Of a stretch of 64,000 bases of DNA, positions 14,048 to 43,839 are shown piece by piece. The stretch is taken from contig CAVORL010000006.1 in NCBI GenBank assembly GCA_963698595.1, positions 140,877 to 204,876 on the forward strand, read 5' to 3'. Position 1 is the stretch's first letter. Every line of letters starts with the position of its first letter. The position numbers were made by a program, and so were the translations under genes. Source of the DNA: an uncultured Chloroflexia bacterium (GTDB taxonomy: Bacteria; Chloroflexota; Limnocylindria; Limnocylindrales; CSP1-4). The notes below the pieces were generated by a model, which did no database searches, was not told where the DNA came from, and saw only the letters and a list, made by a program, of their open reading frames with translations.

Positions 14048-15253
14048 CTAGGCCGCCACGACGGCGCCGAGAGCGGCGGCGAACGAGTCGAACGTGGCGG
14101 AGGTGAAGCCGGCGACGTTGATGCGGCCCTTCCCGACCACGTAGACGGCGTGCTCTTCGCGGAGGCGGGCCACCTGGTCGACCGAGAGCCCGAGGAGGGC
14201 GAACATGCCGCGTTGCCGCGCGATCGGATCCCAGTCGCCGGGGATGCCGCGTGCCACGAGGGCCTCGACGAGGCGGGCCCGGTTGTCCTTGATCCGGGTC
14301 CGCATCCCCGCCAGCTCGGTCTCCCATCGCGCCCGGAGGTCAGCGTCGCCGAGGATCGTGGCGACGATGTCGGCCCCGTGGCTCGGAGGGTTCGAGTAGT
14401 TGGCCCGGATCGCGATCTTCACGTTGCTCTGGGCGGCCGCGGCGTCCTGCTCGGTGCGGGCCACCAGCAGGAGCGCGCCGACGCGCTCGCTGTAGAGGGC
14501 GAAGTTCTTGGAGAACGAGGTGGAGATGAGGAGCTCCGCCCCGGGTCGGATGAGCCCCTCCATCCAGTCGGCGTCCTCGCGGATCCCGTCCCCGAACCCC
14601 TGGTAGGCGAAGTCCACGAAGGGCAGGAGGCGGCGCTCTTCGACGAGGTCCCCGATGGCCCGCCACAGGGCGGGGGACGGGTCGACGCCGGTCGGGTTGT
14701 GGCACGAACCGTGGAGGAGAACGATGTCGCCGGGCGATGCCTGGCCGAGCGCACCCAGCAGCGCCTCCTCGTCGATCCGACGGCCCGAGGGGTCTGTGTA
14801 CGGGTACGTCCGGATCCGGAACCCGGCCAGCTGGAAGAGCTGAGGATGATTCGGCCATGTCGGCTCGCTCATCCAGATCGTGGCCGACGAGCCGGTCTGG
14901 CGGAGGAAGTCGGCCGCCACGCGCAGGCCACCCGTGCCGCCCGGCGTCTGGCTGACGGCGACCCTGGCGCTCCGTGCGAGCTCGTGGTCCTCGCCGAAGA
15001 CGTAGCCCCGGACCGCATCGCGGTAGTCGGCCGCGCCGTCGATGGGCCGGTAGCCCTTCGGCGCGCCCTTGGTCAGGATGCGTCGCTCCGCCTCGGTCAC
15101 GGACGGCAGCACGGGGGTGGTGCCGGTCTCATCCACGAAGACCCCCGACGACAGGTTGATCTTGCCGGGTCGCGGGTCATTGCGGAACGCCTCGGCGAGG
15201 CCAAGGATGGGGTCGGGCGGGGCGGGCACGCGGGCGAGGGAGGGGAGGGCCAC
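14048..15253 (-). CDS. aspC: Aspartate/aromatic amino acid aminotransferase (class I)
   Basis: PDPILGL, TPGGTGGLR, PTWPNH, CHNPTG, DFAYQGF, SFSKNFALYSER, GRINVAG. Confidence 0.92.
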   Translation of the reverse strand: MALPSLARVPAPPDPILGLAEAFRNDPRPGKINLSSGVFVDETGTTPVLPSVTEAERRILTKGAPKGYRPIDGAADYRDAVRGYVFGEDHELARSARVAVSQTPGGTGGLRVAADFLRQTGSSATIWMSEPTWPNHPQLFQLAGFRIRTYPYTDPSGRRIDEEALLGALGQASPGDIVLLHGSCHNPTGVDPSPALWRAIGDLVEERRLLPFVDFAYQGFGDGIREDADWMEGLIRPGAELLISTSFSKNFALYSERVGALLLVARTEQDAAAAQSNVKIAIRANYSNPPSHGADIVATILGDADLRARWETELAGMRTRIKDNRARLVEALVARGIPGDWDPIARQRGMFALLGLSVDQVARLREEHAVYVVGKGRINVAGFTSATFDSFAAALGAVVAA

Positions 15254-15357
15254 GAAGATCTCCTGAGATCGGGGGCTGGGCGAGCATGCGGGGATGTCGG
15301 CACACGATACCGCGGCTGCCCCGACCCGGATCGGGCGGTGCCGGGTACCCTGCGCGC

Positions 15358-16107
15358 ATGCGCCTGCTCGCCCTCACCTGCGAGGTCCTCGCCCGGTCGG
15401 TCTACCTGTGCGCCGCGCGCTCGCCGCACGTCGTCGACGTCCGCCTCAACCGGCGAGGCCTGCACGACAACCCGCCGAACCTGCGGACGATCCTGCAGGC
15501 CGAGATCGACGGGATCGGGCAGCCCTATGACGCCGTCGTCCTGGCGTACGGGCTGTGCGGCGGGGCGACCGCGGGCCTGCGAGCTGGCGGGATCCCCCTT
15601 GTCGTCCCCCGAGCCCACGATTGCATCACGGTCTTCCTGGGCTCGCGCGACCGCTACGCGCGGGAGTTCACGGACCACCCCGGCACCTACTGGTACGTGC
15701 AGGACTACGTCGAGCGGACCGACGACGGGAGCGCGTTCGGCGGCGTGGGGGCGGTCTCCGACGCCGACGCTCTCGCCACGTACCAGCAGTACGTCACCAA
15801 GTACGGCGAGGACAACGCCTCGTACCTCATGGAGGCCCTCGGCGCCTGGCGCTCCCACTACGACAGGGCGGCATTCGTGGACATGGCCGTCGCCGACCCC
15901 CACGGCGCCGCTGCCGTCGAGGCGCGCACCCGCGAGGACGCGGAACGGCGCGGCTGGACCTTCGAGAAGCTGGCCGGCGAGCTGGTCCTCGTGCGGCGCC
16001 TCATCGACGCCGACTGGAGGGACGAGGACTTCCTCGTCGTCAAGCCGGGCCAGCAGCTCGCCATGTCCTACGACGAAGCGGTGATCCGCGCCGAACCTGC
16101 CGGCTGA
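15358..16107 (+). CDS. DUF1638 protein (corrinoid-activation associated)
   Basis: LTCEVL, GLHDNP, LAYGLCGG, PRAHDCI motifs; TACCCT 6 nt upstream of the ATG. Confidence 0.85.
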   Translation: MRLLALTCEVLARSVYLCAARSPHVVDVRLNRRGLHDNPPNLRTILQAEIDGIGQPYDAVVLAYGLCGGATAGLRAGGIPLVVPRAHDCITVFLGSRDRYAREFTDHPGTYWYVQDYVERTDDGSAFGGVGAVSDADALATYQQYVTKYGEDNASYLMEALGAWRSHYDRAAFVDMAVADPHGAAAVEARTREDAERRGWTFEKLAGELVLVRRLIDADWRDEDFLVVKPGQQLAMSYDEAVIRAEPAG

Positions 16108-16165
16108 CTCCGGCCGCTGCCCCGTCGGCTGACGGGGATCCCGGGGCCCGCCGCCCGGACCGGGA

Positions 16166-17587
<1,422 letters not shown>

Positions 17588-17713
17588 GGCTGGCCTCCCG
17601 GCCTTCGCGGTCGCTGTCGCGGGTGCTTCCGCGGCCGGACCATGGGGCCGTGGGGCGCGCGGCGCCCGCCCCGCCGTCCCGGAGGCCGACTTCCTGGTGG
17701 TCATCTCGGCGCC

Positions 17714-18244
17714 CTACCCGAACCGCGGCTTGTTGCCGAGGTCCGGCGTGCGCCCTTCGAGCAGCTCGCTGAGCACCAGCAGGATCGCATTGGGCTTCGG
17801 CGGGCAGCCCGGGACGTGGACGTCGACCTTGATCGACTGGTGGAGCGGCTCCGCGTGCTTGAGCAGCGCGGGCACCCCCTCGGTCGGCACGCCCGGCTGA
17901 TCGGTGGCCCCCTCCACGTAGATGCGCTCGAGCAGCCTGCGCACCGGGATGCCGTTGCGCATCGAGGGGACGTTGCCGGTCACCGCACAGTCGCCGAGGG
18001 CGACCACGATCGCGCTCTTCGCGCGCGCCGTCCGGGCGAGCTTCAGGTCGTCCTGGCTGCTGACCGCGCCTTCGATGACGGCGACGTCGACGTCCTCGGG
18101 CCACTCCTGCGCGTCCACGAGGGGACCGAACACGATGTCGGCCTTCCGGAGCACCGCGACGATACCCTCGTCGATGTCGAGCAGCGACATGTGGCAGCCG
18201 GAGCAGCCGTCCAGCCAGCAGGTGCCGATCCTCGGCCGGCCCAT
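17714..18244 (-). CDS. hoxY: [NiFe]-hydrogenase small subunit
   Basis: WLDGCSGCHMS, GDCAVTG, VPGCPP. Confidence 0.93.
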   Translation of the reverse strand: MGRPRIGTCWLDGCSGCHMSLLDIDEGIVAVLRKADIVFGPLVDAQEWPEDVDVAVIEGAVSSQDDLKLARTARAKSAIVVALGDCAVTGNVPSMRNGIPVRRLLERIYVEGATDQPGVPTEGVPALLKHAEPLHQSIKVDVHVPGCPPKPNAILLVLSELLEGRTPDLGNKPRFG

Positions 18245-18951
18245 CAGATCCCCCTCCGGATGGAGGTGAGGTGGCTGACGACCGCGTTCTGCTTCGTCAT
18301 CTCCTCCACTCCCCAGCCCTTCTCGGCCAGCGCGCCGGTCGGGCAGGCCTGGACGCACTTGCCGCAGCTCGTGCAGGTGGTGGCCTCGCCCCACGGCCGA
18401 TTCAGCTCCGAGACGAGCATCGACAGGGTCCCGCGAGCCGCCACGTCCCACACGTGGGCGCCCTCGATCTCGGCGCAGGTGCGGACACAGCGCGAGCAGA
18501 GGACGCAGCGGTTGTGGTCGAGCACGTAGCGCGGGTGCGAGGTGTCGACGGCGAGCCGCGGGTAGCTGTAGGGGTAGCGGACGTGGGTGACCCCGTGGTC
18601 CTGGGCCAGGGTCTGCAGCTCGCAGTGCCCCGAGGAGACGCACACGGCGCAGACGTGGTTGCGCTCCGAGAAGAGCAGCTCGAGCGCGATCTTCCGGTAG
18701 GCGTGGAGCTGCGCCGAGCTCGTGACGACCGCCAGGCCCTCCTGCACGGGGGTGGTGCAGGCCGGCTGCAGCCGGCCGACCCCCGAGATCTCTACCACGC
18801 ACAGGCGGCAGGCGCCCGCCGCGCTCAGCCCCTCCATGTAGCAGAGGGCCGGGATGTACGCGTTGTTCGCCCGCGCGACCTCCAGGATCGTCTGGCCGGT
18901 GGCCGCAGCGATGACCTCGCCGTCGATGCGGACCTTCACCTTCTCGGTCAC
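18244..18951 (-). CDS. hoxU: Bidirectional hydrogenase diaphorase Fe-S subunit
   Basis: 2Fe-2S motif (IPALC, GACRLC, QPAC), HVCAVC..C and two CxxCxxC 4Fe-4S motifs. Confidence 0.93.
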   Translation of the reverse strand: MTEKVKVRIDGEVIAAATGQTILEVARANNAYIPALCYMEGLSAAGACRLCVVEISGVGRLQPACTTPVQEGLAVVTSSAQLHAYRKIALELLFSERNHVCAVCVSSGHCELQTLAQDHGVTHVRYPYSYPRLAVDTSHPRYVLDHNRCVLCSRCVRTCAEIEGAHVWDVAARGTLSMLVSELNRPWGEATTCTSCGKCVQACPTGALAEKGWGVEEMTKQNAVVSHLTSIRRGI

Positions 18952-18963
18952 AGCCGGTCCTTC

Positions 18964-21900
18964 CTATCTCTCGACGCTGTGGATGTCACAGCGCAGGCAG
19001 CGGGATGTCTCCATCACCGCGACCCCGGGCGTGAGGCCGAGGGAGACCTCCGCATGCGAGAGCACCCGCTCGGCGGCGGGCATCTCGAGGGGGGTGTTGC
19101 GACCGCCCTCGGCCGGGGTCTCGGGCGGTTCCATGCCGTACGCGAACTCGGGGCCCAGGCCGGCGATGCGCCTTCGGCCCGTGAGCCGCCAGTCGATGGT
19201 GCCGGCGGCCTTCTTGCCGTAGCCCATCGCGTTCGAGACGTTGGAGGCGCCGGTGATCAGGTCGCCGCCCGCGTAGAAGCGCTCGCGGCTCGTCTCGAGC
19301 GAGTACCGGTCGACCTCGATCGTGCCGCTGCCGCCCTCGTGGACCTTCAGGCCGGATGCCTTCAGGAAGTCGGGGTCGACCTTCTCGCCGACCGCGAGGA
19401 TCACGGTGTCGCATTCGAAGCGGATCACCTCGTCCGTCAGCACCGGCCGGCGCCGGCCCGAGGTGTCGAACTCGCCGAGCTTCGTCCTGACCGCCTCGAG
19501 GGCACGAACCTGGCCGTTGGTGTCGCCGACGATGCGGTGCGGCGCTGCGAGATAGGCGATCTTGACGCCCTCGAGCTCGGCGGCCTGGATCTCCTCCGGG
19601 ATCGCCGGCATGTCCTTCCGCTCACGGCGATAGACGACCGTCGCCTCCGCGCCCAGCCGGCGCGCCGTGCGCGCAGAGTCGATCGCGGCGTTGCCGCCGC
19701 CGATCACGACGACCTTCTTGCCGATCGAGACCTGCTCGTCCCGCGCCGCGGACTCCAGGAACGGGAGCGCTGGGATCACGCCCGTGAGCTCCGTCCCGGG
19801 CATGTAGACCCAGGCCTCCTTCCAGGTGCCGATGGCGAGGAAGACGGCGTCGTACTGGTGCGCCACTTCGTTGAGCGTGATGTCCTCGCCGACGTTGACG
19901 TTGAACCGGAACACCACGCCGAGGCGCTCGATCAGCTCGATCTCCCGGTCCAGGACGGACTTCGGGAGCCGGTACTCGGGCAGCGCGTAGCGGAGCATGC
20001 CGCCGGCCGCGGGACGCGAGTCGTAGACCGTCACGCTGTGGCCGAGGAGCGCAAGGTAGAACGCGCAGGTGAGCCCCGTCGGCCCGGCGCCGACGATGGC
20101 GATCTCCCGCCCGGTCGGCTCCAGCCTGCGCTCGACCACCCGCTCCACCATGGCGTTGAAGCGACCCGAGAGCAGCACCTCGTCGGCGATCAGGCGGTGC
20201 ACATCGCGCATGTTCACCGCCTCGTCCACCGCGGCACGGCGACAGCGGTCGTCGCAGGGATGCTGGCAGACACGCCCCGTGGAGGCGGGGAGCGGGTTGT
20301 CGAAGACCACCGAGAGGAAGGCGTCCTCGAGCCGCCCTTCGTTGTACAGCTGCAGGAAGCGCGGGATGTTCATGTGCAGCGGACAGGAGTTCTCGCACGG
20401 CGAGAGCGCCAGGTCCTCGCACACGCCGGCCCGACAGCGCTTCGCCACGATGTGGTCCTCGAACTCGTGGCGGAAGTGGCGCAGGGTGGTGAGCACGGGG
20501 TTGGGCGCGCTCTGGCCGAGCCCGCAGAGCGAGGTGTCACGGACCATGCGGCACAGCTCGTCGAGCGCCTCCAGGTCCGCGTGGGTGGCCGTGCCCAGCG
20601 TGCAGTTGTCGAGGATGCGCAGCGCCTGGTCGAGGCCGACGCGGCAGGGCACGCACTTCCCGCAGCTCTCCGACTGCGTGAACTCGATGAAGAAGCGGGC
20701 GACGTCAACCATGCAGTTGTCTTCGTCCATGACGACCATGCCGCCCGAGCCCATGATCGAGCCGAGCTGCGCGAGCGTCTCGTAGTCGACCGGCGTGTCG
20801 AACATGTCCACCGGAATGCAGCCGCCCGATGGACCTCCCGTCTGCACGGCCTTGATGTCGCGCCCGTGCGTGCCGCCCCCACCTACGTCGTAGATGAACG
20901 TTGCGAGCGGCGTGCCCAGCGGCATCTCGACCAGCCCCGTGCTCTTCACCTTGCCGACCAGCGAGAAGACCTTGGTGCCGGGGCTCTTGGCACTGCCGGT
21001 CTCGGTGAACCAGGCCGGCCCCTTCGAGACGATCGGCGCGACGTTGTACCAGGTCTCCACGTTGTTGATGTTGGTCGGCTTCCCGTACAGGCCCTTCTGG
21101 GCCGGGAAGGGCGGGCGCGTCCGGGATCTTCCGGCATGACCTTCCAGGGAGGCGATGAGCGCCGTCTCCTCGCCGCACACGAAGGCGCCAGCGCCCTCGA
21201 CCGTCTCGATGTCGAAGGCGAACCCGCGTCCGAGCACGTTCTCGCCGAGGAGCCCGTAGGCTCGCGCCTGCGCGATCGCGCGCTCGAGACGCAGCACGGC
21301 GAGCGGGTACTCGGCGCGCACGTAGATGATCCCCTTGCCGGCACCCGTGGCGTAGCCGGCGATCAGCATCCCCTCGAGGAGGGCGTGGGGATCGGATTCG
21401 ATCTCGTTCCGATTCATGTAGGCGCCCGGGTCACCCTCGTCCGCGTTGCAGATGAGGTACTTCTCCGGGTCGAGCGCCTTCTGCAGGAACTCCCACTTGT
21501 TGCCGGTGAGATACCCGGCGCCGCCGCGACCACGGAGCTTCGCGGCCTTGATCTGCTCGATCACGGCGACCGGGTTCTGGTCGATCAGGACCTTGTACAG
21601 GGCCTGGTAGCCGCCGACCGCGACGTACTCCTCGATGTCGTCGGGATTGATCAGCCCGCAGTTGCGGAGGACGGTCTTGACCTGCCCGCTGAAGAACGGC
21701 AGCTCGTGCCAGTGCGGCACCTCGGGGTACCCGTAGCCGTACTTCACGTGGCCGGTGATGTGATCCCACTCCTCGATCTTGCAAAGCACGAGCTCGGGAG
21801 GCGGCGGCTGGCCTTCGCCGAGGCCGTTCAGGATCTCGTCAACGTGGTTCGGCCGGACCTGGCGGAGGATGAGCAGCGGGTGGCCGGGCACCCACACGTT

Positions 21901-22125
21901 GACGAGCGGTTCCTCGGCGCAGTAGCCAAAGCATCCGACCGGCGCCAGGTGCACGGCGAGGCCTCGACCGTCGATCTCCGAGGAAAACGCGTGGAAGACG
22001 GATTCGGCGCCGTTGCCGGAGCCGCAGGTGCCCATGCCGACGGCGATCCGGGGCTTGCTCGGCAGCAGCTTCGCGAGGCCGTCCTCCCGCACGGCAGCGA
22101 AGGCGGCGATGTCGCCGATCATCAT
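18964..22125 (-). CDS. hoxF: HoxF/NuoF-like NAD(H)-FMN subunit fused to a C-terminal GltD/NfnB-like FAD-NADP(H) module
   Basis: LRGRGGAG, NADEGDPGAYM, GEETAL, ESCGKCVPCR; then PCENSCP, GRVCQHPCDDRCRR, GAGPTG, GGGNAAID, YRR and RCLRC. The start ATG overlaps the hoxE stop. Confidence 0.9.
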   Translation of the reverse strand: MMIGDIAAFAAVREDGLAKLLPSKPRIAVGMGTCGSGNGAESVFHAFSSEIDGRGLAVHLAPVGCFGYCAEEPLVNVWVPGHPLLILRQVRPNHVDEILNGLGEGQPPPPELVLCKIEEWDHITGHVKYGYGYPEVPHWHELPFFSGQVKTVLRNCGLINPDDIEEYVAVGGYQALYKVLIDQNPVAVIEQIKAAKLRGRGGAGYLTGNKWEFLQKALDPEKYLICNADEGDPGAYMNRNEIESDPHALLEGMLIAGYATGAGKGIIYVRAEYPLAVLRLERAIAQARAYGLLGENVLGRGFAFDIETVEGAGAFVCGEETALIASLEGHAGRSRTRPPFPAQKGLYGKPTNINNVETWYNVAPIVSKGPAWFTETGSAKSPGTKVFSLVGKVKSTGLVEMPLGTPLATFIYDVGGGGTHGRDIKAVQTGGPSGGCIPVDMFDTPVDYETLAQLGSIMGSGGMVVMDEDNCMVDVARFFIEFTQSESCGKCVPCRVGLDQALRILDNCTLGTATHADLEALDELCRMVRDTSLCGLGQSAPNPVLTTLRHFRHEFEDHIVAKRCRAGVCEDLALSPCENSCPLHMNIPRFLQLYNEGRLEDAFLSVVFDNPLPASTGRVCQHPCDDRCRRAAVDEAVNMRDVHRLIADEVLLSGRFNAMVERVVERRLEPTGREIAIVGAGPTGLTCAFYLALLGHSVTVYDSRPAAGGMLRYALPEYRLPKSVLDREIELIERLGVVFRFNVNVGEDITLNEVAHQYDAVFLAIGTWKEAWVYMPGTELTGVIPALPFLESAARDEQVSIGKKVVVIGGGNAAIDSARTARRLGAEATVVYRRERKDMPAIPEEIQAAELEGVKIAYLAAPHRIVGDTNGQVRALEAVRTKLGEFDTSGRRRPVLTDEVIRFECDTVILAVGEKVDPDFLKASGLKVHEGGSGTIEVDRYSLETSRERFYAGGDLITGASNVSNAMGYGKKAAGTIDWRLTGRRRIAGLGPEFAYGMEPPETPAEGGRNTPLEMPAAERVLSHAEVSLGLTPGVAVMETSRCLRCDIHSVER

Positions 22126-22655
22126 CGCGCGGCGTCCTTGCGCAGCATCTCGACCTCGCGGATCAGGGCCTGCTCCTTGACGTGGCCCCGGATCGCGTGG
22201 TTCACCTCGACGACGGGGGCGAGAGCGCACTGGCCGAAGCAGGCGACGGTGCGGATCGTGAACCGCCGGTCCCGCGTCGTCAGCTTCAGCTTGTCGGCCC
22301 CCTCGCCGATCTCCTGCAGGCCGAGCTGGAGCTTCACGCGCTCGAGCAAAGCCCGGGATCCACGGGTGTGGCAGGCGGTGCCGCGGCAGATCGCCACGGT
22401 GTGCGTCCCCTGAGGGTCGAGGTTGAACAGCGCGTAGAACGTCGCGACGCTGTAGATCTGCGACTGGGGCACGCCGGTCCGCGCGGCCACGTACTCCAAC
22501 GTCTCCATCGGCAGGTACGTGTGGCGGTTGTGCTCCTGCAGCTTCTCGAGGATGACGAGCAACGCGCCGGGGCGTCCGGCCTGGTCGCCGATGACGCGGT
22601 CGATCAGGTCCCGGTCTTCGTCGCGGGGCAGCGCCGTCACCACGCCGGTGGTCAT
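22122..22655 (-). CDS. hoxE: HoxE/NuoE-like 2Fe-2S subunit
   Basis: VATFY, CRGTACH, ACFGQCALAP; GGAGG RBS. Confidence 0.92.
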   Translation of the reverse strand: MTTGVVTALPRDEDRDLIDRVIGDQAGRPGALLVILEKLQEHNRHTYLPMETLEYVAARTGVPQSQIYSVATFYALFNLDPQGTHTVAICRGTACHTRGSRALLERVKLQLGLQEIGEGADKLKLTTRDRRFTIRTVACFGQCALAPVVEVNHAIRGHVKEQALIREVEMLRKDAAR

Positions 22656-22758
22656 CGAACCCTCCAAACGGAGGCCGCGTCCCGGAGGCCGGCCATGCGA
22701 CCAACCCGCAGAACACGGCGAGCGGCCGCATCCTAGCGGGAGGGCGGCCGGTCCAGAC

Positions 22759-22774
22759 AGGGCCATTCGGTAAC
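22759..22774 (-). promoter_or_regulatory. Putative DosR-like box at the hox promoter
   Basis: GTTACCGAATGGCCCT lies 23 nt upstream of TAGGAT (22735-22730) and shares 12 identical bp with the box at 57097. Confidence 0.6.
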
Positions 22775-22868
22775 GTCGCGAGGCCACTCGGCATGGGGTG
22801 CACGGGCCGGAGAGCGGGCCACCCGGAAGCCGCCGACCCGCAGCCGGGATCCGGCCGCTTCGTCCGGG

Positions 22869-23498
22869 TCAGGTCATCCCGACGGCGATCTTCGCCACCT
22901 CGACCGCCGAGGCGGCATCCGGCGCGAAGCCGTCGGCGCCGATCGTTGCGGCGTACTCGGCTGTGACGGGGGCACCGCCGACGATGACCTTGACGTCCGG
23001 GAGGCTCGCCCGCACGGCGGCCACCACGTCCCGCATGCCGACCATCGTCGTGGTGAGCAGCGCGGAGACCCCCACGAGCGAGGCGCCGTGCTCCTTCGCC
23101 GCGGCGACGAAGGCCTCGGCGGACACGTTCGTGCCGAGGTCGACGACCTCGATGTTGGCGCCCTTCCACATCATCCCCACCAGGTTCTTGCCGATGTCGT
23201 GGAGGTCGCCCTTGATCGTCCCGATCACGGCGGTGTGCTCGGGGTGGATGTCGGCCGCGACGAGGACGGGCTCCAGGACCGCTGTCGCCTCCCGCATCGC
23301 CCGCGCGCTGATGAGCATCTCGGGGACGTAGATCTCGTTGCACTGGAACTTGCGGCCGATGACCTCCATCGCGGCGGTCATCGCGTCGAGAACCGCCCGT
23401 GGGTCCAGCCCCTCGGCCACGGCCTCGGTCGTGATCGCCACTGCTGTGGCCCGGTCGCCCGCCTCGACCGCGGCGGTCAGGGCCTCGAGATCTGCCAC
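22869..23498 (-). CDS. Corrinoid (B12-binding) methyltransferase protein, MtbC/MttC-like
   Basis: Cap domain (EIYVPEMLISARAM), DLHDIGKNLV DxHxxG motif, SALLTTT, GGAPVT; AGGAG RBS. Confidence 0.93.
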   Translation of the reverse strand: MADLEALTAAVEAGDRATAVAITTEAVAEGLDPRAVLDAMTAAMEVIGRKFQCNEIYVPEMLISARAMREATAVLEPVLVAADIHPEHTAVIGTIKGDLHDIGKNLVGMMWKGANIEVVDLGTNVSAEAFVAAAKEHGASLVGVSALLTTTMVGMRDVVAAVRASLPDVKVIVGGAPVTAEYAATIGADGFAPDAASAVEVAKIAVGMT

Positions 23499-23553
23499 CC
23501 TGCTGCTCCTTCTGCGTTGGGAGGAGGGTCGCGCCTGCGTCGCGTGGCGCGGG

Positions 23554-24582
23554 TCAGGCGAGCTCACCGGCGCGGTAGGCCGCGAGGAACGCCACCCCGA
23601 ACGGGTCCCGCCCGGTAAGAAGATCGGCGGCGAGGGCGTAGGCGCGCGTCGTTCGGTCTGCGGCGAAGATGTGCGAGACGTCGGACGCCACTGGGTCGAT
23701 GATCCCCGAGTCGGCCCCGGCCTCTGCGGCGAGGTCGATGAAGACGTCGTTGAGCAGCTTCCGAAGCGGCAGCCCGAAGCTCACGTTCGAGAGGCCGCCC
23801 GTGAGGTGGACGTCGGGCCCCAGCGTCGCCCGCAGGGTCCGCACGGCCTCCAGGAACCAGGCCCCGACCTCCGGCTCCACGGCGACCGGCAGAACGAGGG
23901 GGTCGACGAACATCGCCCCGGGGGCGAGCCCGCGCTGGGTCGCTTCCTCGACGATCCGTTCTGCATTTGCGACGCGCTCGGCCGCCGAGGCGGGCATCCC
24001 GTGCTCGCCGATTGCCCCGAGGACGGCCGGGCAACCCTCGCCGGCGGCGAGGTCGAGGACGTCGAGCCGCTCGAGGGAGGCCGAGTTCAGGAGCGGCGCC
24101 CCAACGGTGCGGGCCGCCGCGGAGAGGCCCGCCCGCATCACCTCCGGTGACGACGAGTCCAGGGCGAGCCCGGCGGGCGTCGCGTCCTCGACGGCAGCCA
24201 CGAGCCAGCGCATGGCCGCGACGCGCACGTGGAGGTCGTTGCTCGCCTCGTCGACGTTCAGGTCCAGGTAGTCGGCGCCGGCGTCGGCCTGGCGTCGGGC
24301 GAGGAACCGGACGTAGCCCCGGCCGAGCTCCGCGCCCGGCCCGCCCGCGAGGCCTGCGAGGACGGCGGCCTTGACGTGCTTGACCTTCTGCTTCGCCCCG
24401 GCGCCGTCGAGGGCCGTGTCCGGGACCGGCAGGAGGAGCTCGGCGCCCGCGTCGTCGGTGAACGGCAGCGCCGGCCGGCCGTCGGGGAGCTCCGTGACCC
24501 GGGCCCCGCTGCGCAGGAGGACGCGGGTGGCGTGGACGTTCTCGCCGATGACGGTGAACGGGCCCCGGACGGTGTCGGTCAT
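23554..24582 (-). CDS. Pterin-binding methyl-THF:corrinoid methyltransferase (AcsE/MT2-like)
   Basis: IGENVH, YLDLNVD, LDSS, LLNS, VDPLVLPV, GGLSNVSFGLP. Confidence 0.85.
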   Translation of the reverse strand: MTDTVRGPFTVIGENVHATRVLLRSGARVTELPDGRPALPFTDDAGAELLLPVPDTALDGAGAKQKVKHVKAAVLAGLAGGPGAELGRGYVRFLARRQADAGADYLDLNVDEASNDLHVRVAAMRWLVAAVEDATPAGLALDSSSPEVMRAGLSAAARTVGAPLLNSASLERLDVLDLAAGEGCPAVLGAIGEHGMPASAAERVANAERIVEEATQRGLAPGAMFVDPLVLPVAVEPEVGAWFLEAVRTLRATLGPDVHLTGGLSNVSFGLPLRKLLNDVFIDLAAEAGADSGIIDPVASDVSHIFAADRTTRAYALAADLLTGRDPFGVAFLAAYRAGELA

Positions 24583-26192
24583 GCGCGGGTCTCCTTCGTG
24601 GGCGTCGTGCCGGCGGGCTCGCCGGTGCCCGGGGACGCCGCCGAAGCGGCGGCACGGCCACGGTGGTCGCGGCCCAGGTACGTGTTGGCCCAGGCGCTCG
24701 TGCGCCGCAGAGCATGGTCGACGAGGACGGGTGGCCGCTCGAGCATCGCGAGCTCCTCGCCGTACGGCTTGAGCCGGTCGTACGCGCGCACCCAGACGCA
24801 GGGTTCCGGGACGACCTCGCACGTCCCGTCGTGGCTGCCGCCGCACGGACCGTTGCGCTCGCCCTTCGGGCACTGGCTCTCCGGGCACAGGTAGGCGACG
24901 TCGGGCAGCGAGCAGTCGCCGCAGTCGCGGCAGTCGAAGAGCGGGATCTTGACCGCCTGCTCCAGCGCGTGCACCGGCCGCGACAGGCCGTACCGCTCGA
25001 CGGCCTCGTAGAAGCGGGTCGCGGCGCGGTAGCCCGGCGTGCCCGGCGTGAAGGCCCGGTCGTGGGTCACGCGGTTGAGGCGGTACGCGATCGACCCCCG
25101 GCGCCGGGCCCTGGCCCGCGCGGCCGGGGTGATGGAGCGGGCGTAGCGCAGGTCGAGCTCGTCGGTCCCGAGGCCGGTTGCGGCATCCCGCCGGTAGAGG
25201 AAGAAGGTGCCCCTCGGGCTGTGCTGGACCTCCCTCGCGAGCGCCGGCCAGTCCGGCGCGAACGACGCGGCCATCTCCAGAATCCGCTCCACGTCCGCCG
25301 CGGGCAGGCTGTGCCCGGCGAGGTAGGCGCCCCGGAAGCCCATCCCGCGCGCGATCGCGACCTGCTTCGCGGCGAGCTCGAGGAAGAACGTCTTGCCCTT
25401 GTCGGCCCCACCCGCCGCCTTCTCGATCGTCGCCAGCAGCTCGTCGGAGACGACGCAGCCGGGAATCTCGTTGGCGTTGAAGAGCCGGGCAACCGTCCGG
25501 GTCAGGACGTAGACGTTGGCCAGCACCGGGAGGCGCAGGTCGTGGAGGCGCATCCAGCGCAGGAGCTCGTCCCACTTGCGCGCGTCGTAGCCCAGCTGGG
25601 GGATCACGAAGTCGGCCCCGGCGCGGACCTTCATGGCCAGCTTGAGGTACTGCGGGATCACCTCGCTCTCGAGCCGCTTGAAGGGCGAGACGGCGGTCGC
25701 GAGGTAGAAGCCCGGGGCGCGCTCCGCGCCGTCGCGTCCGGGCTCGCTCGCGAGGTCACGGTAGAGGCTCAGCAGGCCCACCGAGTCCACGTCGAAGACC
25801 GGGCCGGAGAGGCCTCCCGCCCCCTCTACCGGGTAGTCGCCCGACACCACGAGGACGTTGCGGATCCCGCGCGCCTCGAGCTCCCAGCCGAGTGAGCGAA
25901 GAGCGTTGCGGCTGCGGTCGCGGCACGCGATGTGGACGATGACGTCCTGGCCCGCAGCAAGGAGCTCCTCGGCGAGGGGCACCGGGCTCGCCATCGCGTG
26001 GCCGCCGGCATTGTCGGTGATCGAGACGGCGGCGATCCGGGGGTCGCCGACCAGTGCCCGGGCCGCCTCCAGGCTGCGCCGTGCCGGCGGGTCGAGGGCC
26101 AGCCCGCGGGCCGGGACGATCTCGATGACGGTCACGAACTCGTCGGTCTCGACGAGACGAGCGCGGAGCGGGGCCTTGGCTGCAGAGCTCAT
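24579..26192 (-). CDS. metF: Methylene-THF reductase, MetF fused to a C-terminal MetV-like Cys-rich domain
   Basis: ITDNAGG, HIACRDR, SGDYP, QLGYD; C-terminal CRDCGDC...CP..CPK..RNGPCGG...C...C. Confidence 0.88.
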   Translation of the reverse strand: MSSAAKAPLRARLVETDEFVTVIEIVPARGLALDPPARRSLEAARALVGDPRIAAVSITDNAGGHAMASPVPLAEELLAAGQDVIVHIACRDRSRNALRSLGWELEARGIRNVLVVSGDYPVEGAGGLSGPVFDVDSVGLLSLYRDLASEPGRDGAERAPGFYLATAVSPFKRLESEVIPQYLKLAMKVRAGADFVIPQLGYDARKWDELLRWMRLHDLRLPVLANVYVLTRTVARLFNANEIPGCVVSDELLATIEKAAGGADKGKTFFLELAAKQVAIARGMGFRGAYLAGHSLPAADVERILEMAASFAPDWPALAREVQHSPRGTFFLYRRDAATGLGTDELDLRYARSITPAARARARRRGSIAYRLNRVTHDRAFTPGTPGYRAATRFYEAVERYGLSRPVHALEQAVKIPLFDCRDCGDCSLPDVAYLCPESQCPKGERNGPCGGSHDGTCEVVPEPCVWVRAYDRLKPYGEELAMLERPPVLVDHALRRTSAWANTYLGRDHRGRAAASAASPGTGEPAGTTPTKETRA

Positions 26193-27847
26193 GCGGGCGG
26201 TGCCTCCACGGTGGACGGCAGGGGCTCGAAGCGCAGGCCGTCGACGAACAGGTCGAAGAAGTCGGGCTCGGCTTCCAGCTCCACGTGCTCGATCGTCCCG
26301 ACGAACGCCTCCAGGCGGGCCCGCGCGTGACGGGAGAGCAGCAGCTCCGCCGCCCCGCGCACCGAGGCGTTGCCGTGCTGGACCACGCGCTCCGTGGGCA
26401 CCGGCGGCAGGAACCCGATCCGCTGGGCGTTGGCCACGTCCAGGTGCGAGGCGAAGCCGCCGGCGAGGTGGAGGGCGGTGAGGTCGCCCGGGCCCAGGCC
26501 GAGGGCTCGCAGCAGGACGCGCATGCCGACCGCGTTGGCCGCCTTGGCCTGGGCCAGCTGGGCCGCGTCACCACGCGAGAAGCTGATCCCGTGGTCCGGG
26601 TCGATCGTGACCGCCTGCGTCCCGCCCGCGAAGGCTCCCGTCGGGCTCATGGCGCCGGTCCGGCGGAGCTCGGCGAGGACGTCGACGAGGCCCGAGCCGC
26701 AGATCCCCTCCGGCTCCACGTCGCCGATGACCCGGACCTCCCAGGCGTCGCCATGAAGGCGGGCCGCCTCGATGGCTCCCTCGGAGCCCGGCATCCCGTA
26801 GCGCACGAGGCCGCCCTCGAACGCCGGCCCGGCCGGGCACGAGGCGGCGAGCACGCGGCGCCCGTCCGTGACGACGACCTCGGTGTTCGTTCCCACGTCC
26901 ACCAGCATGGCAGGTCCGGATGAGGTGGCGACCGCGGCCGCCTCGAGCATTCCCGCCGGCAGCAGGTCGGCGGCCGCGTCGGCGCCGACGTGGCACGCCA
27001 CGAGGGGGGCGCCCCAGACCCGGGCGTGCGGGTTGACCAGGACTCCGAGCTCGTGGGCCAGGCGGGTGACGCTGCTGGCCGGCGCCTCGCCGGCTCGCCA
27101 GGCCGTCTCGGTCACGCTCCTGAAGGGTGAGCGGCCGATGGGCGCCACGTCGAGGTCGAAGAAGAGGTCGCGCATCGTCGCGTTGCCGACGACGACGACC
27201 TCCAGCACATCGTGGCGGTCCAGGCCGTGCTCGGCGTAGATGCGCGACAGCTCGTGGTTCAGCGCCCGCCGCAGCGACCGCCGGAGCTCGCCGGGCCGCT
27301 CCGCCTCGTACGAGATGCGCCCGATCACGTCGCTCCCTCCGAACCGCTGGGGGTTCTCGAAAGCGCCCACCGCGACGGGCTCGCCGGTCCCCAGGTCGAG
27401 CACCTGGAGCACGACGGTCGTGGTGCCGACGTCGAGCGCCACGCCCAGGAGCCGCTCGCGGGCTGCGACGAGGTCCTCCTCGTACCAGCGGACGCGGCCG
27501 CCGGCGACCGTGATCGCGGGGTCAACGTCGAGCGGGGGCCCGTCCGGCGGCATGAGGATCTTCAGGTGTCGCCGGAGGACCACGAACTCCAGGTCGGAGT
27601 CGGCCGGCTCGCGCTCCACCACCGCCCGGCAGGCGAGACGGTAGCCCGGCCGGAGGAACGTCTCCTGGGCGTCCGGGGGCGCCAGGGCGTCGCCTCCGCG
27701 GAGGATCTCGACGACGCACTCGTGACAGCGCCCCGAGCGGCGACAGCTGGCGGGGACGACCATCGCCAGCTCGTCGGCAGCGTCGAACAGCGTCCCGCCC
27801 GGCAGGAGCGGGGCGCGACGCCCAGCGTGGACGAGGTCGCGGGTCAC
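26189..27847 (-). CDS. ATP-dependent corrinoid reductive activator (RACo/RamA, ASKHA + 2Fe-2S)
   Basis: SCRRSGRCHEC...RLAC; DVGTTT, DVGTNTE, AGPAFEG, GICGSG, LAGGF; TATCCT 6 nt upstream of the GTG. Confidence 0.9.
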   Translation of the reverse strand: MTRDLVHAGRRAPLLPGGTLFDAADELAMVVPASCRRSGRCHECVVEILRGGDALAPPDAQETFLRPGYRLACRAVVEREPADSDLEFVVLRRHLKILMPPDGPPLDVDPAITVAGGRVRWYEEDLVAARERLLGVALDVGTTTVVLQVLDLGTGEPVAVGAFENPQRFGGSDVIGRISYEAERPGELRRSLRRALNHELSRIYAEHGLDRHDVLEVVVVGNATMRDLFFDLDVAPIGRSPFRSVTETAWRAGEAPASSVTRLAHELGVLVNPHARVWGAPLVACHVGADAAADLLPAGMLEAAAVATSSGPAMLVDVGTNTEVVVTDGRRVLAASCPAGPAFEGGLVRYGMPGSEGAIEAARLHGDAWEVRVIGDVEPEGICGSGLVDVLAELRRTGAMSPTGAFAGGTQAVTIDPDHGISFSRGDAAQLAQAKAANAVGMRVLLRALGLGPGDLTALHLAGGFASHLDVANAQRIGFLPPVPTERVVQHGNASVRGAAELLLSRHARARLEAFVGTIEHVELEAEPDFFDLFVDGLRFEPLPSTVEAPPA

Positions 27848-27968
27848 GTGTGCAGGATAGGTCCCCGCGAATCACTCGTCCCGGGGCACCCCGACGTGGA
27901 CCGTGCCCGACGGCCTTGCCCGCCAGCGCACAGGGCTGGCTGGCCGTTCACAAGGGAGGCCGCGGGGC

Positions 27969-27997
27969 TTGACACGATGTGCGCCAAGACGCAGACT
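27969..27997 (+). promoter_or_regulatory. Sigma70-type promoter of the ArsR gene
   Basis: TTGACA-17 nt-CAGACT, 7 nt before GTG 28005. Confidence 0.6.
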
Positions 27998-28004
27998 ACC
28001 GTGC

Positions 28005-28424
28005 GTGAACGCTTACCAACAATCGACGAACCCGCTGGCCGCGCTCGGCGACGCGACCCGTCGCGCGATCGTCGAGGCCCTGCGGGAGGGCGAGCGCACC
28101 GTCGGCGAGCTGGCCGCCGGCCTGCCGGTCAGCCGGCCCGCGGTGTCGCAACACCTGGCCGTGCTCAAGGCCGCCGGGCTGGTCGTCGAGCGGACCCAGG
28201 GCACGCGCCACTACTACCGGCTCGACCCGATCGGGCTCGTGCACCTTCACGATCGCATCGATGCGATGTGGGGGCTCGAGGCCGGTGAGGTGCCGACACC
28301 GGCCTCCACGCTACCGGTCGCGGCCTCGTCCCCGGCGGCCGCGGAGGAACCCGCGCGGGATGAAGGCGGCAAGGGCGGACGCAAGAAGCGCAAGAAGAAG
28401 GGCGGGCACAAGGGCCGCTCCTGA
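28005..28424 (+). CDS. ArsR/SmtB-family transcriptional regulator
   Basis: ALGDATRRAIV, TVGELA, SRPAVSQHLAVL, GTRHYYRL; Lys-rich tail. Confidence 0.9.
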   Translation: MNAYQQSTNPLAALGDATRRAIVEALREGERTVGELAAGLPVSRPAVSQHLAVLKAAGLVVERTQGTRHYYRLDPIGLVHLHDRIDAMWGLEAGEVPTPASTLPVAASSPAAAEEPARDEGGKGGRKKRKKKGGHKGRS

Positions 28425-40878: not shown

Positions 40879-41754
40879 TTACGGTCGCTCCAGGCCGTGG
40901 GCCTTGAGGAAGGCGTCGTCCGCCAGCAGCGTGGCCGTCGCGTCGTCGCCCACGATCTCACCGTCGTCCATCACGACGGTCCGCGGGAACACCTCGTCCA
41001 CGAGGCGCATGTCGTGGGTCGAGACGAGGAGCGTCTGGTCGAGCGAGCGCAGGAGGACGATCAGCTCGCGGCGGCCCCTCGGGTCGAGCCCCGCAGACGG
41101 CTCGTCGAAGACGAGCACGCTGGGATCCATCGAGAGGACGGTGGCCAGCGCCACCCGCTTGCGCTGGCCGAGAGAGAGCCGGTGGGGGAGGCGTCGCTCG
41201 GAGCCGGCCATGCCGACGGCCGCCAGCGCCCGCTCCACGCGCTCGTGGATCTCGGACTCCGGGACGCCCATGTGGAGGGGTCCGAAGGCGACGTCTTCGA
41301 AGACCGTCGGGCTGAACAGCTGGTCGTCGGGGTCCTGGAAGACGAGGCCGACCTCGGCCCGGATCCGCTTGACGCTGGTGCGATCGATGAGTGTCCCGCC
41401 GATCCGCACCGAGCCGTGGGTGGGGGTGTTGATGCCGTTGAGGTGGAGCATGAGGGTGCTCTTGCCTGCACCGTTCGGCCCCACGAGGGCAACCTTCTCG
41501 CCGCGGGGTATCCGGAGATGGATCCCCCGCAGCGCCTCGAACCCGTCCGGGTACACGAAGTGGAGGTGCTCGACCTCGATCCAGCGGGCGACCAGCTCCG
41601 CGGACGGCGCGGGCCCCGCAACGGGATGGCCATGCAGTGCCCCGGGCACATGGGCGTGCTCGTGGACGCCGGGACTCTCGGACTCGGGTCCATGCTCGTG
41701 GGGGTGGACGTGGCCGGCGGCCATGGGGGAGGCCGGGGGCCGCACGCTGCTCAT
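40879..41754 (-). CDS. cbiO: ECF Co/Ni transporter ATPase with His-rich N-terminus
   Basis: GPNGAGKS, FQDPDDQLF, LSLGQRKR, FDEP, STHD. Confidence 0.9.
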   Translation of the reverse strand: MSSVRPPASPMAAGHVHPHEHGPESESPGVHEHAHVPGALHGHPVAGPAPSAELVARWIEVEHLHFVYPDGFEALRGIHLRIPRGEKVALVGPNGAGKSTLMLHLNGINTPTHGSVRIGGTLIDRTSVKRIRAEVGLVFQDPDDQLFSPTVFEDVAFGPLHMGVPESEIHERVERALAAVGMAGSERRLPHRLSLGQRKRVALATVLSMDPSVLVFDEPSAGLDPRGRRELIVLLRSLDQTLLVSTHDMRLVDEVFPRTVVMDDGEIVGDDATATLLADDAFLKAHGLERP

Positions 41755-42545
41755 GGCCGTGGGAGCACGAGCTGGCCCGCGACGGCCAGGGCCAGGATGG
41801 CGGCGGCGACAACCACGAAGGCGGTCCAGTCGGTTGCCGTCAGGGCCCGGCCCCCCATCGAACGGAACTCGCCGTCGAAGCCGCGCGCCAGCATCGCGGC
41901 ATAGACGCGCTCGCTGCGCTCGTACGAACGGAGGAACAGCGAGCCGACCATCCCGCCCACCACCTTCGCGCGCCAGCGGATGCTCCCGCCGCCGCGTCCC
42001 TCCACGACCGCGGAACGGCTCTGGCGGGCCCGGTTGAGGCGGCCGGCCTCGCCGGTGAGGACGGCGAGGTAGCGATACATGAAGCCGATGATCGCCACCA
42101 GGAGGCGCGGCAGGTGCAGCCGGCGGAGCGCCTCCACGAGGTCTGGAAAGGGGGTGGTGAACGAAAGCAGCAGCGCCGCCTGCACGCTGACCCAGCTCTT
42201 GAATGCGATCGTTGCGAATTCGCGGAGACCCTGGCCGCTGATCGTGAGGGACAGCGGTCCCAGCACGACCGTGGCCAGCGGATCCCCCGGCCGGGAGAAC
42301 ACGAGGGGCAGGGCGGCGAGGATGAACGGCAGCGCGAAGAAGGCAGACCGGGTCAGCCGGAATGGGCCGAGGCGGGCGACGGCGGACAGGCCCACCAGCG
42401 CCAGCCACGCGATGCCGAGCGCGACGAAGGATCCGACCGGCAGCAGGCTGATCGACAGGATGAAGCCGACCGTCAGGACGAACTTGAGCCGCGGGTCGAC
42501 GCGGTGGACGACGCTGTCGCGGGCGAGATAGCGGTCGAGATTCAG
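41751..42545 (-). CDS. cbiQ: ECF Co/Ni transporter T component (start codon uncertain, possibly CTG)
   Basis: HRVDPRLK, FMYRYL, ARQSR, RSERVYAAMLARGF. Confidence 0.88.
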   Translation of the reverse strand: MNLDRYLARDSVVHRVDPRLKFVLTVGFILSISLLPVGSFVALGIAWLALVGLSAVARLGPFRLTRSAFFALPFILAALPLVFSRPGDPLATVVLGPLSLTISGQGLREFATIAFKSWVSVQAALLLSFTTPFPDLVEALRRLHLPRLLVAIIGFMYRYLAVLTGEAGRLNRARQSRSAVVEGRGGGSIRWRAKVVGGMVGSLFLRSYERSERVYAAMLARGFDGEFRSMGGRALTATDWTAFVVVAAAILALAVAGQLVLPRP

Positions 42546-42546
42546 G

Positions 42547-42999
42547 TCAGGCCGCCGGGTCCTTCCGCCTGCGGGCGAGCAGGCGCCCCAGGAGGAGCAC
42601 GAGAACGAAGACGACTGCGATCCCGACGATCCCCGCGACGATCGTGGAGATGGTCCCGTCGAGGCCCGGGATCGTGTAGTCGGGCAGGATGAGGAAGCCC
42701 GGCTCCTTCGCGGCTGCCTCGAACCCCTGCTCGATCGCGACCGCGTCGAGGCCGTCCGGGTCACCGGAGGCGAAGTTGGCCGCCAGGATGGCGACGCCGG
42801 CCGCGATCGCGAGCCCGGCGACCCACCAGTAGCGGTACAGCAGGCCCTTCGGGGTCTCGTCCGGCACGTCCCCGTCCGTCCCGGCCCCGCGAGCGGCGCC
42901 CGGAGGTCCGGCCGGACCAGGGCCCGGGGCGGCGGGGCCGCCCGTGGCGGGCGTTGCGGCGGAGTCTGGGGTGGGGGACCGCAGCGTCACCTCCGCCAC
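42547..42999 (-). CDS. PDGLE-domain (NikN-like) membrane component
   Basis: ASGDPDGLDAVA, PDYTIPG, two TM segments. Confidence 0.85.
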   Translation of the reverse strand: MAEVTLRSPTPDSAATPATGGPAAPGPGPAGPPGAARGAGTDGDVPDETPKGLLYRYWWVAGLAIAAGVAILAANFASGDPDGLDAVAIEQGFEAAAKEPGFLILPDYTIPGLDGTISTIVAGIVGIAVVFVLVLLLGRLLARRRKDPAA

Positions 43000-43000
43000 C

Positions 43001-43714
43001 TCAGGCGCGTGCCGCGACCGGCGCCCCGCGCAGGTGGAGCAGGTCGGGCCGCGTCACCCGGATGAACCCGAGGGCGGCAATCGTGATGAGCGCCTCGCCG
43101 ATCCCGATGAGGGCGTGAGTCGAGAGCATCGCGGTCAGCGCCACCACGAGGTTGGTCGTCCCCGAGAGTCCCAGCTCGATCGCCATCGCGCCGGCGGCGC
43201 CGAAGACCGAGAGCCACGCCGCAACGCCGGCCGCAGGGATCCGTGCCCGCTCCTCGCCGCCCAGGATCCGGCACAGGGACCGGTAGACCGCATAGCCCCC
43301 GAGGGTGCCAATGATCCCCATGTTGAAGATGTTCGCGCCCATCACCACGAGGCCGCCGTCCTGGAAGACGAGGCCCTGGACCGCCACCACGGCGACCATG
43401 ACGAGGGTCCCAGCCCAGGGGCCCAGGAGGACCGCGGCAAGCACGCCCCCCAACAGGTGCCCCGAGGTTCCGCCCACGACCTGGAAGTTGAACATCTGGG
43501 CCGCGAAGACGAACGCTGCGGTCACGCCCATGAGCGGGATGGCCCGCTCGTCGAACGTCGCATTCGTCTTCCTGACGGCGTACGCCGTCACGGCAAGCGT
43601 CACGAGCCACATGAGGCCGGCGATCGGCACGCTGAGGAACCCGTCGGGGGCGTGAAGCTGGCCGGGCCCGAAGCCGCCGGTCGCTGCGGCAGCGCCCGTG
43701 ATGGATGCGAACAC
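43001..43714 (-). CDS. cbiM: ECF Co/Ni substrate-binding S component (CbiM/NikM)
   Basis: LHAPDGFLS, FAAQMFNF, GTSGHLLGG, QDGG...GAN, HALIGIGE; AGGGGAG RBS before GTG 43714. Confidence 0.9.
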   Translation of the reverse strand: MFASITGAAAATGGFGPGQLHAPDGFLSVPIAGLMWLVTLAVTAYAVRKTNATFDERAIPLMGVTAAFVFAAQMFNFQVVGGTSGHLLGGVLAAVLLGPWAGTLVMVAVVAVQGLVFQDGGLVVMGANIFNMGIIGTLGGYAVYRSLCRILGGEERARIPAAGVAAWLSVFGAAGAMAIELGLSGTTNLVVALTAMLSTHALIGIGEALITIAALGFIRVTRPDLLHLRGAPVAARA

Positions 43715-43797: not shown

Positions 43798-43839
43798 ACA
43801 ATGCCCCGCTGCCACCTTGGCCTGCCTATACTCCGTGGC

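Follow-up and report, generated by a model that had tools for sequence, protein, structure and literature searches.

The DNA considered here is a 64,000-nucleotide stretch of contig CAVORL010000006.1 (positions 140,877 to 204,876) of an uncultured Chloroflexia bacterium (assembly GCA_963698595.1). We call this whole stretch the window, and all gene coordinates are in window numbering unless a contig is named. It encodes a corrinoid-dependent methyl-transfer unit, hereafter the methyl hub, which runs into a [NiFe] hydrogenase operon, hoxEFUYH. A first-pass annotation made from the letters alone had proposed that the two form one module, sending electrons from the oxidation of methyl-tetrahydrofolate (methyl-THF) to H2. 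We consider it probable, instead, that two independent units stand side by side: a methyl hub with a dual role, in methylated-amine demethylation and in methionine synthesis, and a hox cassette inserted into it. The idea that methyl-THF oxidation feeds H2 production is not upheld, because the adjacency of the two units is not conserved; more generally, genes may stand side by side in one genome merely through an insertion.

Insertion of the hox cassette into the methyl hub

Genes were picked by third-position G+C, in a window of 72% G+C, and then checked against Pfam and NCBIfam, the Pfam scan taking in 42 open reading frames (ORFs). RACo, MetF-MetV, a pterin-binding methyltransferase, a corrinoid protein, hoxEFUYH and a DUF1638 protein were all found where the first-pass annotation had placed them. 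Nucleotide collinearity was compared with 15 close loci, break points being printed for 5. A segment of 6.76 kb on the reverse strand (16112..22874), made of hoxE-hoxF::gltD-hoxU-hoxY-hoxH and short flanks, is missing from the close relatives: collinearity extends from 28412 to 22875, then takes up again from 16111. In one relative (L018), the two collinear blocks are 78 bp apart, against 6763 bp in the window. The same gap is seen at the protein level, as the matches to the corrinoid protein and to DUF1638 are separated by 21 to 2049 bp in the 31 loci laid out as in the window and by 6.76 kb in the window itself.

The inserted segment has counterparts at other places. HoxH orthologues with 79-82% identity are present in 9 of the 150 other genomes of the order, and all nine keep hoxE-hoxF::gltD-hoxU-hoxY-hoxH; over its length, the window insert is 79-83% identical to these cassettes. 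The stretch in common runs from 22666-22729 down to 16156-16181; upstream of hoxE it takes in 20-75 bp, and on the other side it reaches the stop codon of hoxH. Beyond it, the flanks at the five loci examined are all different (ClpX/trigger factor; transaldolase/thiamine pyrophosphate enzyme; 6PGD/ABC transporter; LDH/ThyX; HsdM/DEAD helicase).

Three surveys bear on the adjacency itself. On the methyl side, a relative of the fused methylene-THF reductase MetF::MetV is encoded at 331 genomic loci, and the best 80 of these were searched with the window proteins (tblastn, coverage of at least 0.4, E value of at most 1e-8); at least 8 kb of sequence downstream of MetFV was available in 62 of them. 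A hox operon was found in none of the 80, the sole hox-like genes being those of a different hydrogenase (33-41% identity) about 7 kb away in one locus (L087). On the hydrogenase side, methyl-module genes were found near none of the nine orthologous hox operons of the order (8-20 kb fetched around each, two contigs being short) and at none of 80 metagenome loci with a gene for the fused HoxF (at least 6.5 kb upstream of hoxF being available in 39). Finally, in a sample of 151 genomes (this one and 150 others of the order, cassette presence being judged by HoxH at 79% identity or more), MetF::MetV was found in 31 genomes and the cassette in 10. Five of the nine other cassette genomes also have MetF::MetV, though away from the cassette (more than 1 Mb away on the same contig in G123 and G095), and it was not found in the remaining four. 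The synteny on which the first-pass annotation relied is thus absent from the 80 MetFV loci, the 9 orthologous cassettes and the 80 metagenome loci; therefore, the hox adjacency is a strain-specific insertion into a variable spacer, and the position of the cassette says nothing about its function.

The spacer between the corrinoid-protein gene and DUF1638 also varies in three other loci (L017, L022 and L024; 13.3-15.4 kb), where it holds a gene for a HAD hydrolase, a helix-turn-helix (HTH) protein or a URO-D-family protein. At the edges of the window insert, we noted a pair of direct 24-nt sequences (16095-16118 and 22836-22859) that are 75% identical. This pair, the only candidate for a target-site duplication, may be a remnant of the original spacer or the product of chance.

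One could still imagine that hox is co-transcribed with the hub, its NAD(P)-linked hydrogenase taking up the reducing equivalents released when methyl-THF is oxidised or providing those needed in the reductive direction, as the first-pass annotation chiefly suggested. The corrinoid-protein gene and hoxE are on the same strand with a 213-bp spacer, and a consensus scan of 15900-23100 returned no promoter-like and no terminator-like site. With only 20-75 bp upstream of hoxE shared with the other copies, the cassette may have arrived without a promoter of its own. Moreover, MetV-type reductases, with their eight invariant cysteines, carry Fe-S clusters and need a redox partner, none of which is conserved beside them. 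Against this, the hox-hub adjacency is unique to this genome among the loci compared, the cassette is found in genomes where MetFV was not, and MetFV mostly occurs without the cassette; in addition, consensus scans for promoters and terminators are weak evidence in a Chloroflexota genome of such high G+C content. The spacer between the corrinoid-protein gene and hoxE folds with a z score of -2.2 into a hairpin that has no U-run. Altogether, a metabolic coupling of this kind appears very unlikely.

The methyl hub and its conservation

From RACo to DUF1638, the genes of this set are all on the reverse strand, with the exception of the DUF1638 gene. The first gene (26189..27847) encodes a RACo/RamA-like protein of 552 amino acids (aa), predicted to be a reductive activator of corrinoid proteins, with Fer2, Raco_middle and RACo_C_ter domains; its best NCBIfam match is AcsV (240 bits, under the cut-off), and it holds the only RACo_C_ter match of the genome. 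The next gene (24579..26192) encodes MetF::MetV. The first-pass annotation wrote the pair as MetF-MetV; both parts are present, and they form a single ORF of 537 aa rather than two genes, with an MTHFR (methylene-THF reductase) domain at residues 55-275 (52 bits) and a DUF5981/MetV domain at residues 406-481 (86 bits). The MTHFR part is divergent, scoring only these 52 bits against Pfam and at most 32 bits against solved MTHFRs, and MetF::MetV accounts for all MTHFR-family matches in the genome. Eight cysteines at positions 421-465 are invariant in 72 aligned sequences, which fits the predicted presence of Fe-S clusters. A redox partner is not conserved beside MetF::MetV in the related loci compared, and RnfC2, Hdr and Mvh partners were not seen among the 42 window ORFs.

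Downstream lies the gene (23554..24582) for a pterin-binding methyltransferase of 342 aa (Pterin_bind domain), the putative methyl-corrinoid:THF methyltransferase (MT2; MtgD- or MtgA-like). It matches PRK07535 in NCBIfam at 184 bits, under the cut-off, and among solved structures it is nearest to 4o0q (115 bits), ahead of MeTr (96 bits) and MetH (about 80 bits). The genome contains one other Pterin_bind match, which is FolP-like, so that MT2 is the sole match of another kind. The corrinoid protein that follows (22869..23567) has 232 aa and is MtgC-like, with B12-binding_2 and B12-binding domains and a DxHxxG motif at residue 121; its best NCBIfam match is MtgC (165 bits, under the cut-off) and its best solved relative 1y80 (160 bits, compared with 91 bits for MetH). 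The ATGA overlaps that had been reported between RACo and MetFV and between MetFV and MT2 are real (4 nt each). The DUF1638 protein (15286..16107, forward strand; 273 aa; PF07796, 116 bits) is encoded convergently with the operon. DUF1638 and RACo each occur as a single copy in the genome, both at the window locus. Upstream, and divergent from the RACo operon, lies an ArsR/SmtB-type HTH regulator (27903..28424, forward strand; Pfam HTH_5/HTH_20), which keeps this divergent position in the more closely related loci. On the other side, an aromatic-type aminotransferase (14048..15253, reverse strand; NCBIfam PRK09257, 501 bits, over the cut-off) is, by synteny, a conserved neighbour of the unit in closer relatives.

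This arrangement, with ArsR divergent from RACo - MetF::MetV - MT2 - corrinoid protein and DUF1638 at the end, is conserved as a unit among Limnocylindria-like Chloroflexota, Latescibacterota and Acidobacteriota. At the 80 MetF::MetV loci, RACo was found 73 times, MT2 74 times, the corrinoid protein 67 times and DUF1638 57 times, the last normally directly after the corrinoid protein or MT2. The nearest relatives of MetF::MetV come from Chloroflexia, Chloroflexota and Candidatus Limnocylindrales metagenome-assembled genomes (MAGs), and the farther ones from Latescibacterota and Acidobacteria/Bryobacteraceae. Within the order, the distribution of the hub is patchy (31 of 151 genomes and 7 of 27 genera), and within its own genus all 10 congeners have it. 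Corrinoid methyltransferase genes in Limnocylindria MAGs had been noted earlier, according to excerpts of PMC11264602.

The hub is repeatedly associated with MttB-family methyltransferases. In 24 of the 80 loci, an MttB-corrinoid protein-MttB cluster, orthologous to one on contig 3 of this genome (62-72% identity), adjoins RACo-MetFV-MT2(-DUF1638) in back-to-back orientation, and MttB is present in 28 of the 31 genomes of the order that have MetF::MetV. For both MT2 and the corrinoid protein, catabolic homologues give better scores than MetH does. In Latescibacterota, four loci have a homocysteine methyltransferase gene following MT2.

A separate observation concerns genera in which MetF::MetV is not found. 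In nine such genomes (G140, G092, G104, G086, G030, G054, G084, G148 and G134), a weak MTHFR-family match, in frames of about 290-300 aa, lies directly beside a high-scoring MttB (about 740-770 bits), with metH a few kb away. MttB beside its own MTHFR is another recurring pairing.

Genome inventory and the dual role of the hub

The window lacks a substrate-specific methyltransferase (MT1) and any gene for acetyl-CoA synthase or carbon monoxide dehydrogenase (ACS/CODH), as the first-pass annotation had stated: none was seen among the 42 ORFs scanned against Pfam. MT1 candidates are encoded elsewhere in the genome, which gave 5-7 matches over the cut-off to the MttB family (PF06253), none of them in the window. 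Two weak matches to the URO-D family were obtained as well. At least three of the MttB matches are clustered on contig 3 with a second corrinoid protein. FolD and Fhs are both encoded, side by side. Two stand-alone homocysteine methyltransferases were also found, an MmuM-type enzyme that passes the NCBIfam cut-off and adjoins the MttB cluster on contig 3, and a Bhmt/MtgE-like protein (C6:327987-328880) whose best NCBIfam match is betaine-homocysteine S-methyltransferase (200 bits for a cut-off of 338). MetE, the MetH activation domain and a second MTHFR were not found in the assembly, which comprises 2.52 Mb in 6 contigs and is 83% complete; nor was there a match to CdhC/ACS (PF03598).

Some details of the MttB genes may be added here. 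The gene order at C3:148228-154637 is MmuM-type homocysteine S-methyltransferase - MttB - corrinoid protein - MttB - MttB, followed by a gene with an S-adenosylmethionine (SAM)-methyltransferase fold; the final MttB comes in two or three pieces, and an in-frame TGA occurs within one of the MttB matches. Another MttB-family protein of 770 aa, encoded at C6:35028-37340, has an N-terminal extension of about 300 aa that gives no Pfam match.

Two precedents are close to this inventory. In Ruegeria pomeroyi DSS-3, as excerpts of PMC12478193 describe, MtgB (MttB family), MtgC, the bidirectional pterin methyltransferase MtgD and the Bhmt-like MtgE work with RamA, DUF1638 and MetF2; growth on glycine betaine and the synthesis of methionine both require MtgC and MtgD, and RamA, DUF1638 and MetF2, the last encoded next to mtgD, are induced. 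In Phaeobacter inhibens, a three-part split methionine synthase depends on a RamA-like Fer2+DUF4445 protein and on a DUF1638 protein, methionine rescuing the mutants of either (excerpts of PMC5764234).

We therefore propose the following scheme for the methyl hub. The corrinoid protein would receive its methyl groups from methyltransferases of the MttB family, whose genes lie elsewhere, and the pterin methyltransferase would hand them on to THF. MetF::MetV, together with its electron partner, would oxidise methyl-THF to methylene-THF, and FolD and Fhs would carry the one-carbon unit onward to formate. In the reverse direction, MetF::MetV and the pterin methyltransferase would load the corrinoid with methyl groups from which the Bhmt/MtgE-like homocysteine methyltransferase could make methionine. 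Corrinoid that falls into the inactive Co(II) state would be re-reduced by RACo, presumably with the help of DUF1638. The hox cassette, which sits at differing sites across genomes, has in this strain entered the small gap that separates the corrinoid-protein gene from DUF1638. The transfer of methyl groups between corrinoid and THF, which the first-pass annotation ascribed to these parts, is supported. The methylotrophic part of that annotation also gains support from the MttB linkage, but the coupling to H2 with which it was combined does not.

Could the hub, with its own MTHFR and a remote homocysteine methyltransferase, be a split methionine synthase and nothing else? This was the alternative offered in the first-pass annotation, and part of it is strengthened here: the assembly shows no MetE, MetH, other MTHFR or other methyl-THF methyltransferase, a Bhmt/MtgE-like protein is encoded on the same contig, the split MetH of P. 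inhibens requires the same two kinds of accessory protein (excerpts of PMC5764234), and the four Latescibacterota loci place a homocysteine methyltransferase after MT2. The purely biosynthetic form is nevertheless unlikely. Nine of the 10 congeners have the hub together with a MetH activation-domain match, which in the four checked belongs to a full-length metH beside a yitJ-like gene; the hub is patchy across the order, in 24 of the 80 loci an MttB cluster is arranged back to back with it, and its MT2 and corrinoid protein are nearer to catabolic systems than to MetH.

The congeners also help to understand why a dual role is preferred. As the hub is not needed for methionine in MetH-bearing congeners and is linked to MttB, a catabolic role is indicated there. 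In the sublineage that this genome forms with G090 (2 contigs, 91% complete), the sampled genome closest to it, the hub may be the only methionine route, since both lack the metH-yitJ locus and keep only the two stand-alone homocysteine methyltransferases. We favour the dual reading because the congeners point to catabolism and this sublineage possibly relies on the hub alone for methionine. Also absent from both genomes is the HemE-type URO-D (about 410 bits), which 8 of the 11 sampled members of the genus possess. The joint absence of metH-yitJ and HemE points to shared losses or to a shared unassembled region.

Fhs, FolD and a MetV-type MTHFR with a hydrogenase next door also recall the methyl branch of acetogens, in which H2 would drive the reductive synthesis of methyl-THF. 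This we regard as extremely improbable, as CdhC/ACS was not found in the 83%-complete genome, the window ORFs scanned contain no CODH/ACS gene and the hox adjacency is not conserved.

Several points weigh against the two-unit, dual-role reading that we prefer. The likeness to the R. pomeroyi system is drawn from its described gene cast, MtgC and MtgD included, and the window genes are known here from their sequence alone. The MttB paralogues all score under the TIGR02369 cut-off. The MetH activation-domain match in 9 of 10 congeners carrying the hub comes, in most of those with MetH, with a second MTHFR-family match beside it, the four congeners checked having a full-length metH next to the yitJ-like gene, which combines homocysteine methyltransferase and MTHFR; with the genome 83% complete, the missing metH, metE and second MTHFR may thus be unassembled, although G090 has none of them either. 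Lastly, read-through from the hub into hox, which would create a regulatory link in this strain, is possible because the cassette brings along only 20-75 bp ahead of hoxE and no terminator-like site follows the corrinoid-protein gene.

On balance, the reading with two independent units extends to abundant soil Chloroflexota, Latescibacterota and Acidobacteriota a dual corrinoid system that would serve methionine synthesis as well as the demethylation of methylated amines; among them is a sublineage that possibly depends on it alone for methionine. The kind of system is already known, having been described recently; what is new is the hub in these phyla, its compact operon and its presumably Fe-S-bearing MetF::MetV.

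A hydrogenase with a fused HoxF::GltD subunit

All five subunits of the cassette, E, F, U, Y and H, are encoded on the reverse strand, and the NiFe-binding motifs are intact. HoxE (22122..22655) is a NuoE-like [2Fe-2S] subunit of 177 aa, counted from the chosen ATG, with a 2Fe-2S_thioredx domain; its best NCBIfam match is HoxE at 123 bits, under the cut-off, and its gene overlaps hoxF in the same way as the hub genes overlap. HoxU (18244..18951; 235 aa) is the Fe-S subunit and matches the NCBIfam HoxU equivalog at 347 bits for a cut-off of 333. The [NiFe] small subunit HoxY (17714..18244; 176 aa) has an Oxidored_q6 domain. The large subunit HoxH (16166..17704; 512 aa by the longest ORF; NiFeSe_Hases) contains the CGIC and CLSC metal-binding motifs, with both NiFe-binding cysteine pairs, and a C-terminal tail. 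Among solved structures, HoxH is nearer to 7t2r_D (532 bits) than to 5xf9_D (421 bits), so that the large subunit is not closest to the NAD-reducing soluble hydrogenases, as group 3d would have it; the class is read here from best structure matches. We take 7t2r to be the electron-bifurcating NiFe HydABCSL enzyme.

HoxF (18964..22125; 1053 aa) is not an ordinary diaphorase. The NuoF/HydB-like part (Complex1_51K and NADH_4Fe-4S) is fused to a C-terminal extension of 490 aa that resembles GltD/NfnA-type NADPH flavoproteins (Fer4_20 and Pyr_redox_2), a feature that the label HoxF in the first-pass annotation did not convey. Residues 27-572 find their best solved relative in 7t2r_B (608 bits), and residues 575-1047 match the GltD-like part of 9bov_A, 9n5u_A (NfnA) and 8oh5_C, the last being presumably from Stn. 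The fusion is found in at least 120 protein clusters of 1049-1056 aa with at least 81% identity, whose source names are all generic, and we found no description of it in the literature searched.

In 30 of the 80 metagenome loci, the fused gene is followed by HoxU and then HoxH, and in 17 of the 80 HoxH is not found despite at least 3 kb of sequence after HoxU. Five of these 17, with 58-61% G+C (L163, L184, L207, L211 and L222), were examined and have HoxE-HoxF::GltD-HoxU without HoxY and HoxH; the scanned neighbours of the trio are unrelated genes, such as those for AccA and a CAAX protease in L163 and L222. By itself, the trio may act as an enzyme of the Nfn/Stn type. We tentatively put forward the possibility, itself doubtful, that HoxE-HoxF::GltD-HoxU-HoxYH is an undescribed kind of [NiFe] hydrogenase, in which a Stn/NfnABC-type NADH/NADPH core and a group-3 NiFe module would link H2, NAD(H) and NADP(H), perhaps through bifurcation or confurcation of electrons. 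That such an enzyme would, in addition, have been captured without a promoter behind the hub operon of this strain, so that methyl oxidation and H2 turnover would be co-expressed and share a pyridine-nucleotide pool, seems quite improbable. In any case, this widespread fused hydrogenase deserves to be flagged, its cofactor logic being of interest.

The genome has other hydrogenase genes. A second, unfused hoxEFUYH is located on contig 4 (C4:175001-195000) and is 37-55% identical to that of the window; a stand-alone GltD-like gene (Fer4_20 and Pyr_redox_2) lies just upstream of it, in the divergent orientation. A third NiFe large subunit is also encoded, and hypD is found at C6:210458-211489, about 5.6 kb past the end of the window. 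Farther along the window itself, there are CbiM/CbiQ metal-transporter genes with a divergent Fur-family regulator (41751-44304) and a pyruvate:ferredoxin oxidoreductase of 1388 aa (57105-61271).

Comparison with known systems

By our comparison, the methyl hub appears to match best the MtgBCDE/RamA/DUF1638/MetF2 system of R. pomeroyi. Going by the excerpts of PMC12478193, both sides have several MttB paralogues, a small corrinoid protein, a pterin methyltransferase, a RamA-like activase and DUF1638; the counterpart of the Bhmt-like module is a candidate in the window genome, its match being under the NCBIfam cut-off. They also share a dedicated MTHFR beside the pterin methyltransferase, although the window's subtype differs from the plain MetF2. 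Unlike in R. pomeroyi, the activase, MTHFR, MT2 and corrinoid protein of the window are encoded by overlapping genes of a single operon, the MTHFR combines MetF with a MetV part that presumably carries Fe-S clusters, and the host belongs to a soil Chloroflexota lineage. With the split methionine synthase of P. inhibens, as far as excerpts of PMC5764234 describe it, the window genome shares separate pterin, B12 and homocysteine modules as well as a RamA-like protein and one with DUF1638; it differs in that most congeners also have MetH, full-length in the four checked, and the hub is often joined to MttB clusters.

Two further corrinoid systems are related. The MtgB/MtgC/MtgA glycine-betaine system of Desulfitobacterium hafniense provides the best NCBIfam names for the corrinoid protein, which are MtgC models with scores under their cut-offs, and components of corrinoid O-demethylases are the nearest solved relatives of MT2 (4o0q) and of the corrinoid protein (1y80/7xcn/4jgi). 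We assume that 4o0q and 4jgi are from the O-demethylase of D. hafniense. Unlike in these systems, no ACS that could consume methyl-THF was found here. In acetogens, MetFV-type methylene-THF reductases occur as MetFV alone, with RnfC2 or with HdrABC-MvhD. The window enzyme has the same MTHFR domain and MetV domain with conserved cysteines, but in a single chain, MetF then MetV.

As for the cassette, the gene order E-F-U-Y-H is shared with the group 3 [NiFe] hydrogenases that have NuoEF-type modules (the soluble NAD-reducing enzyme 5xf9, and 7t2r), and the second half of HoxF is nearest to the GltD-like part of the Stn/NfnABC transhydrogenases (8oh5, 9n5u and 9bov). In contrast to all of these, the window enzyme carries its GltD-like NADPH module fused to the C-terminus of the NuoF-like subunit.

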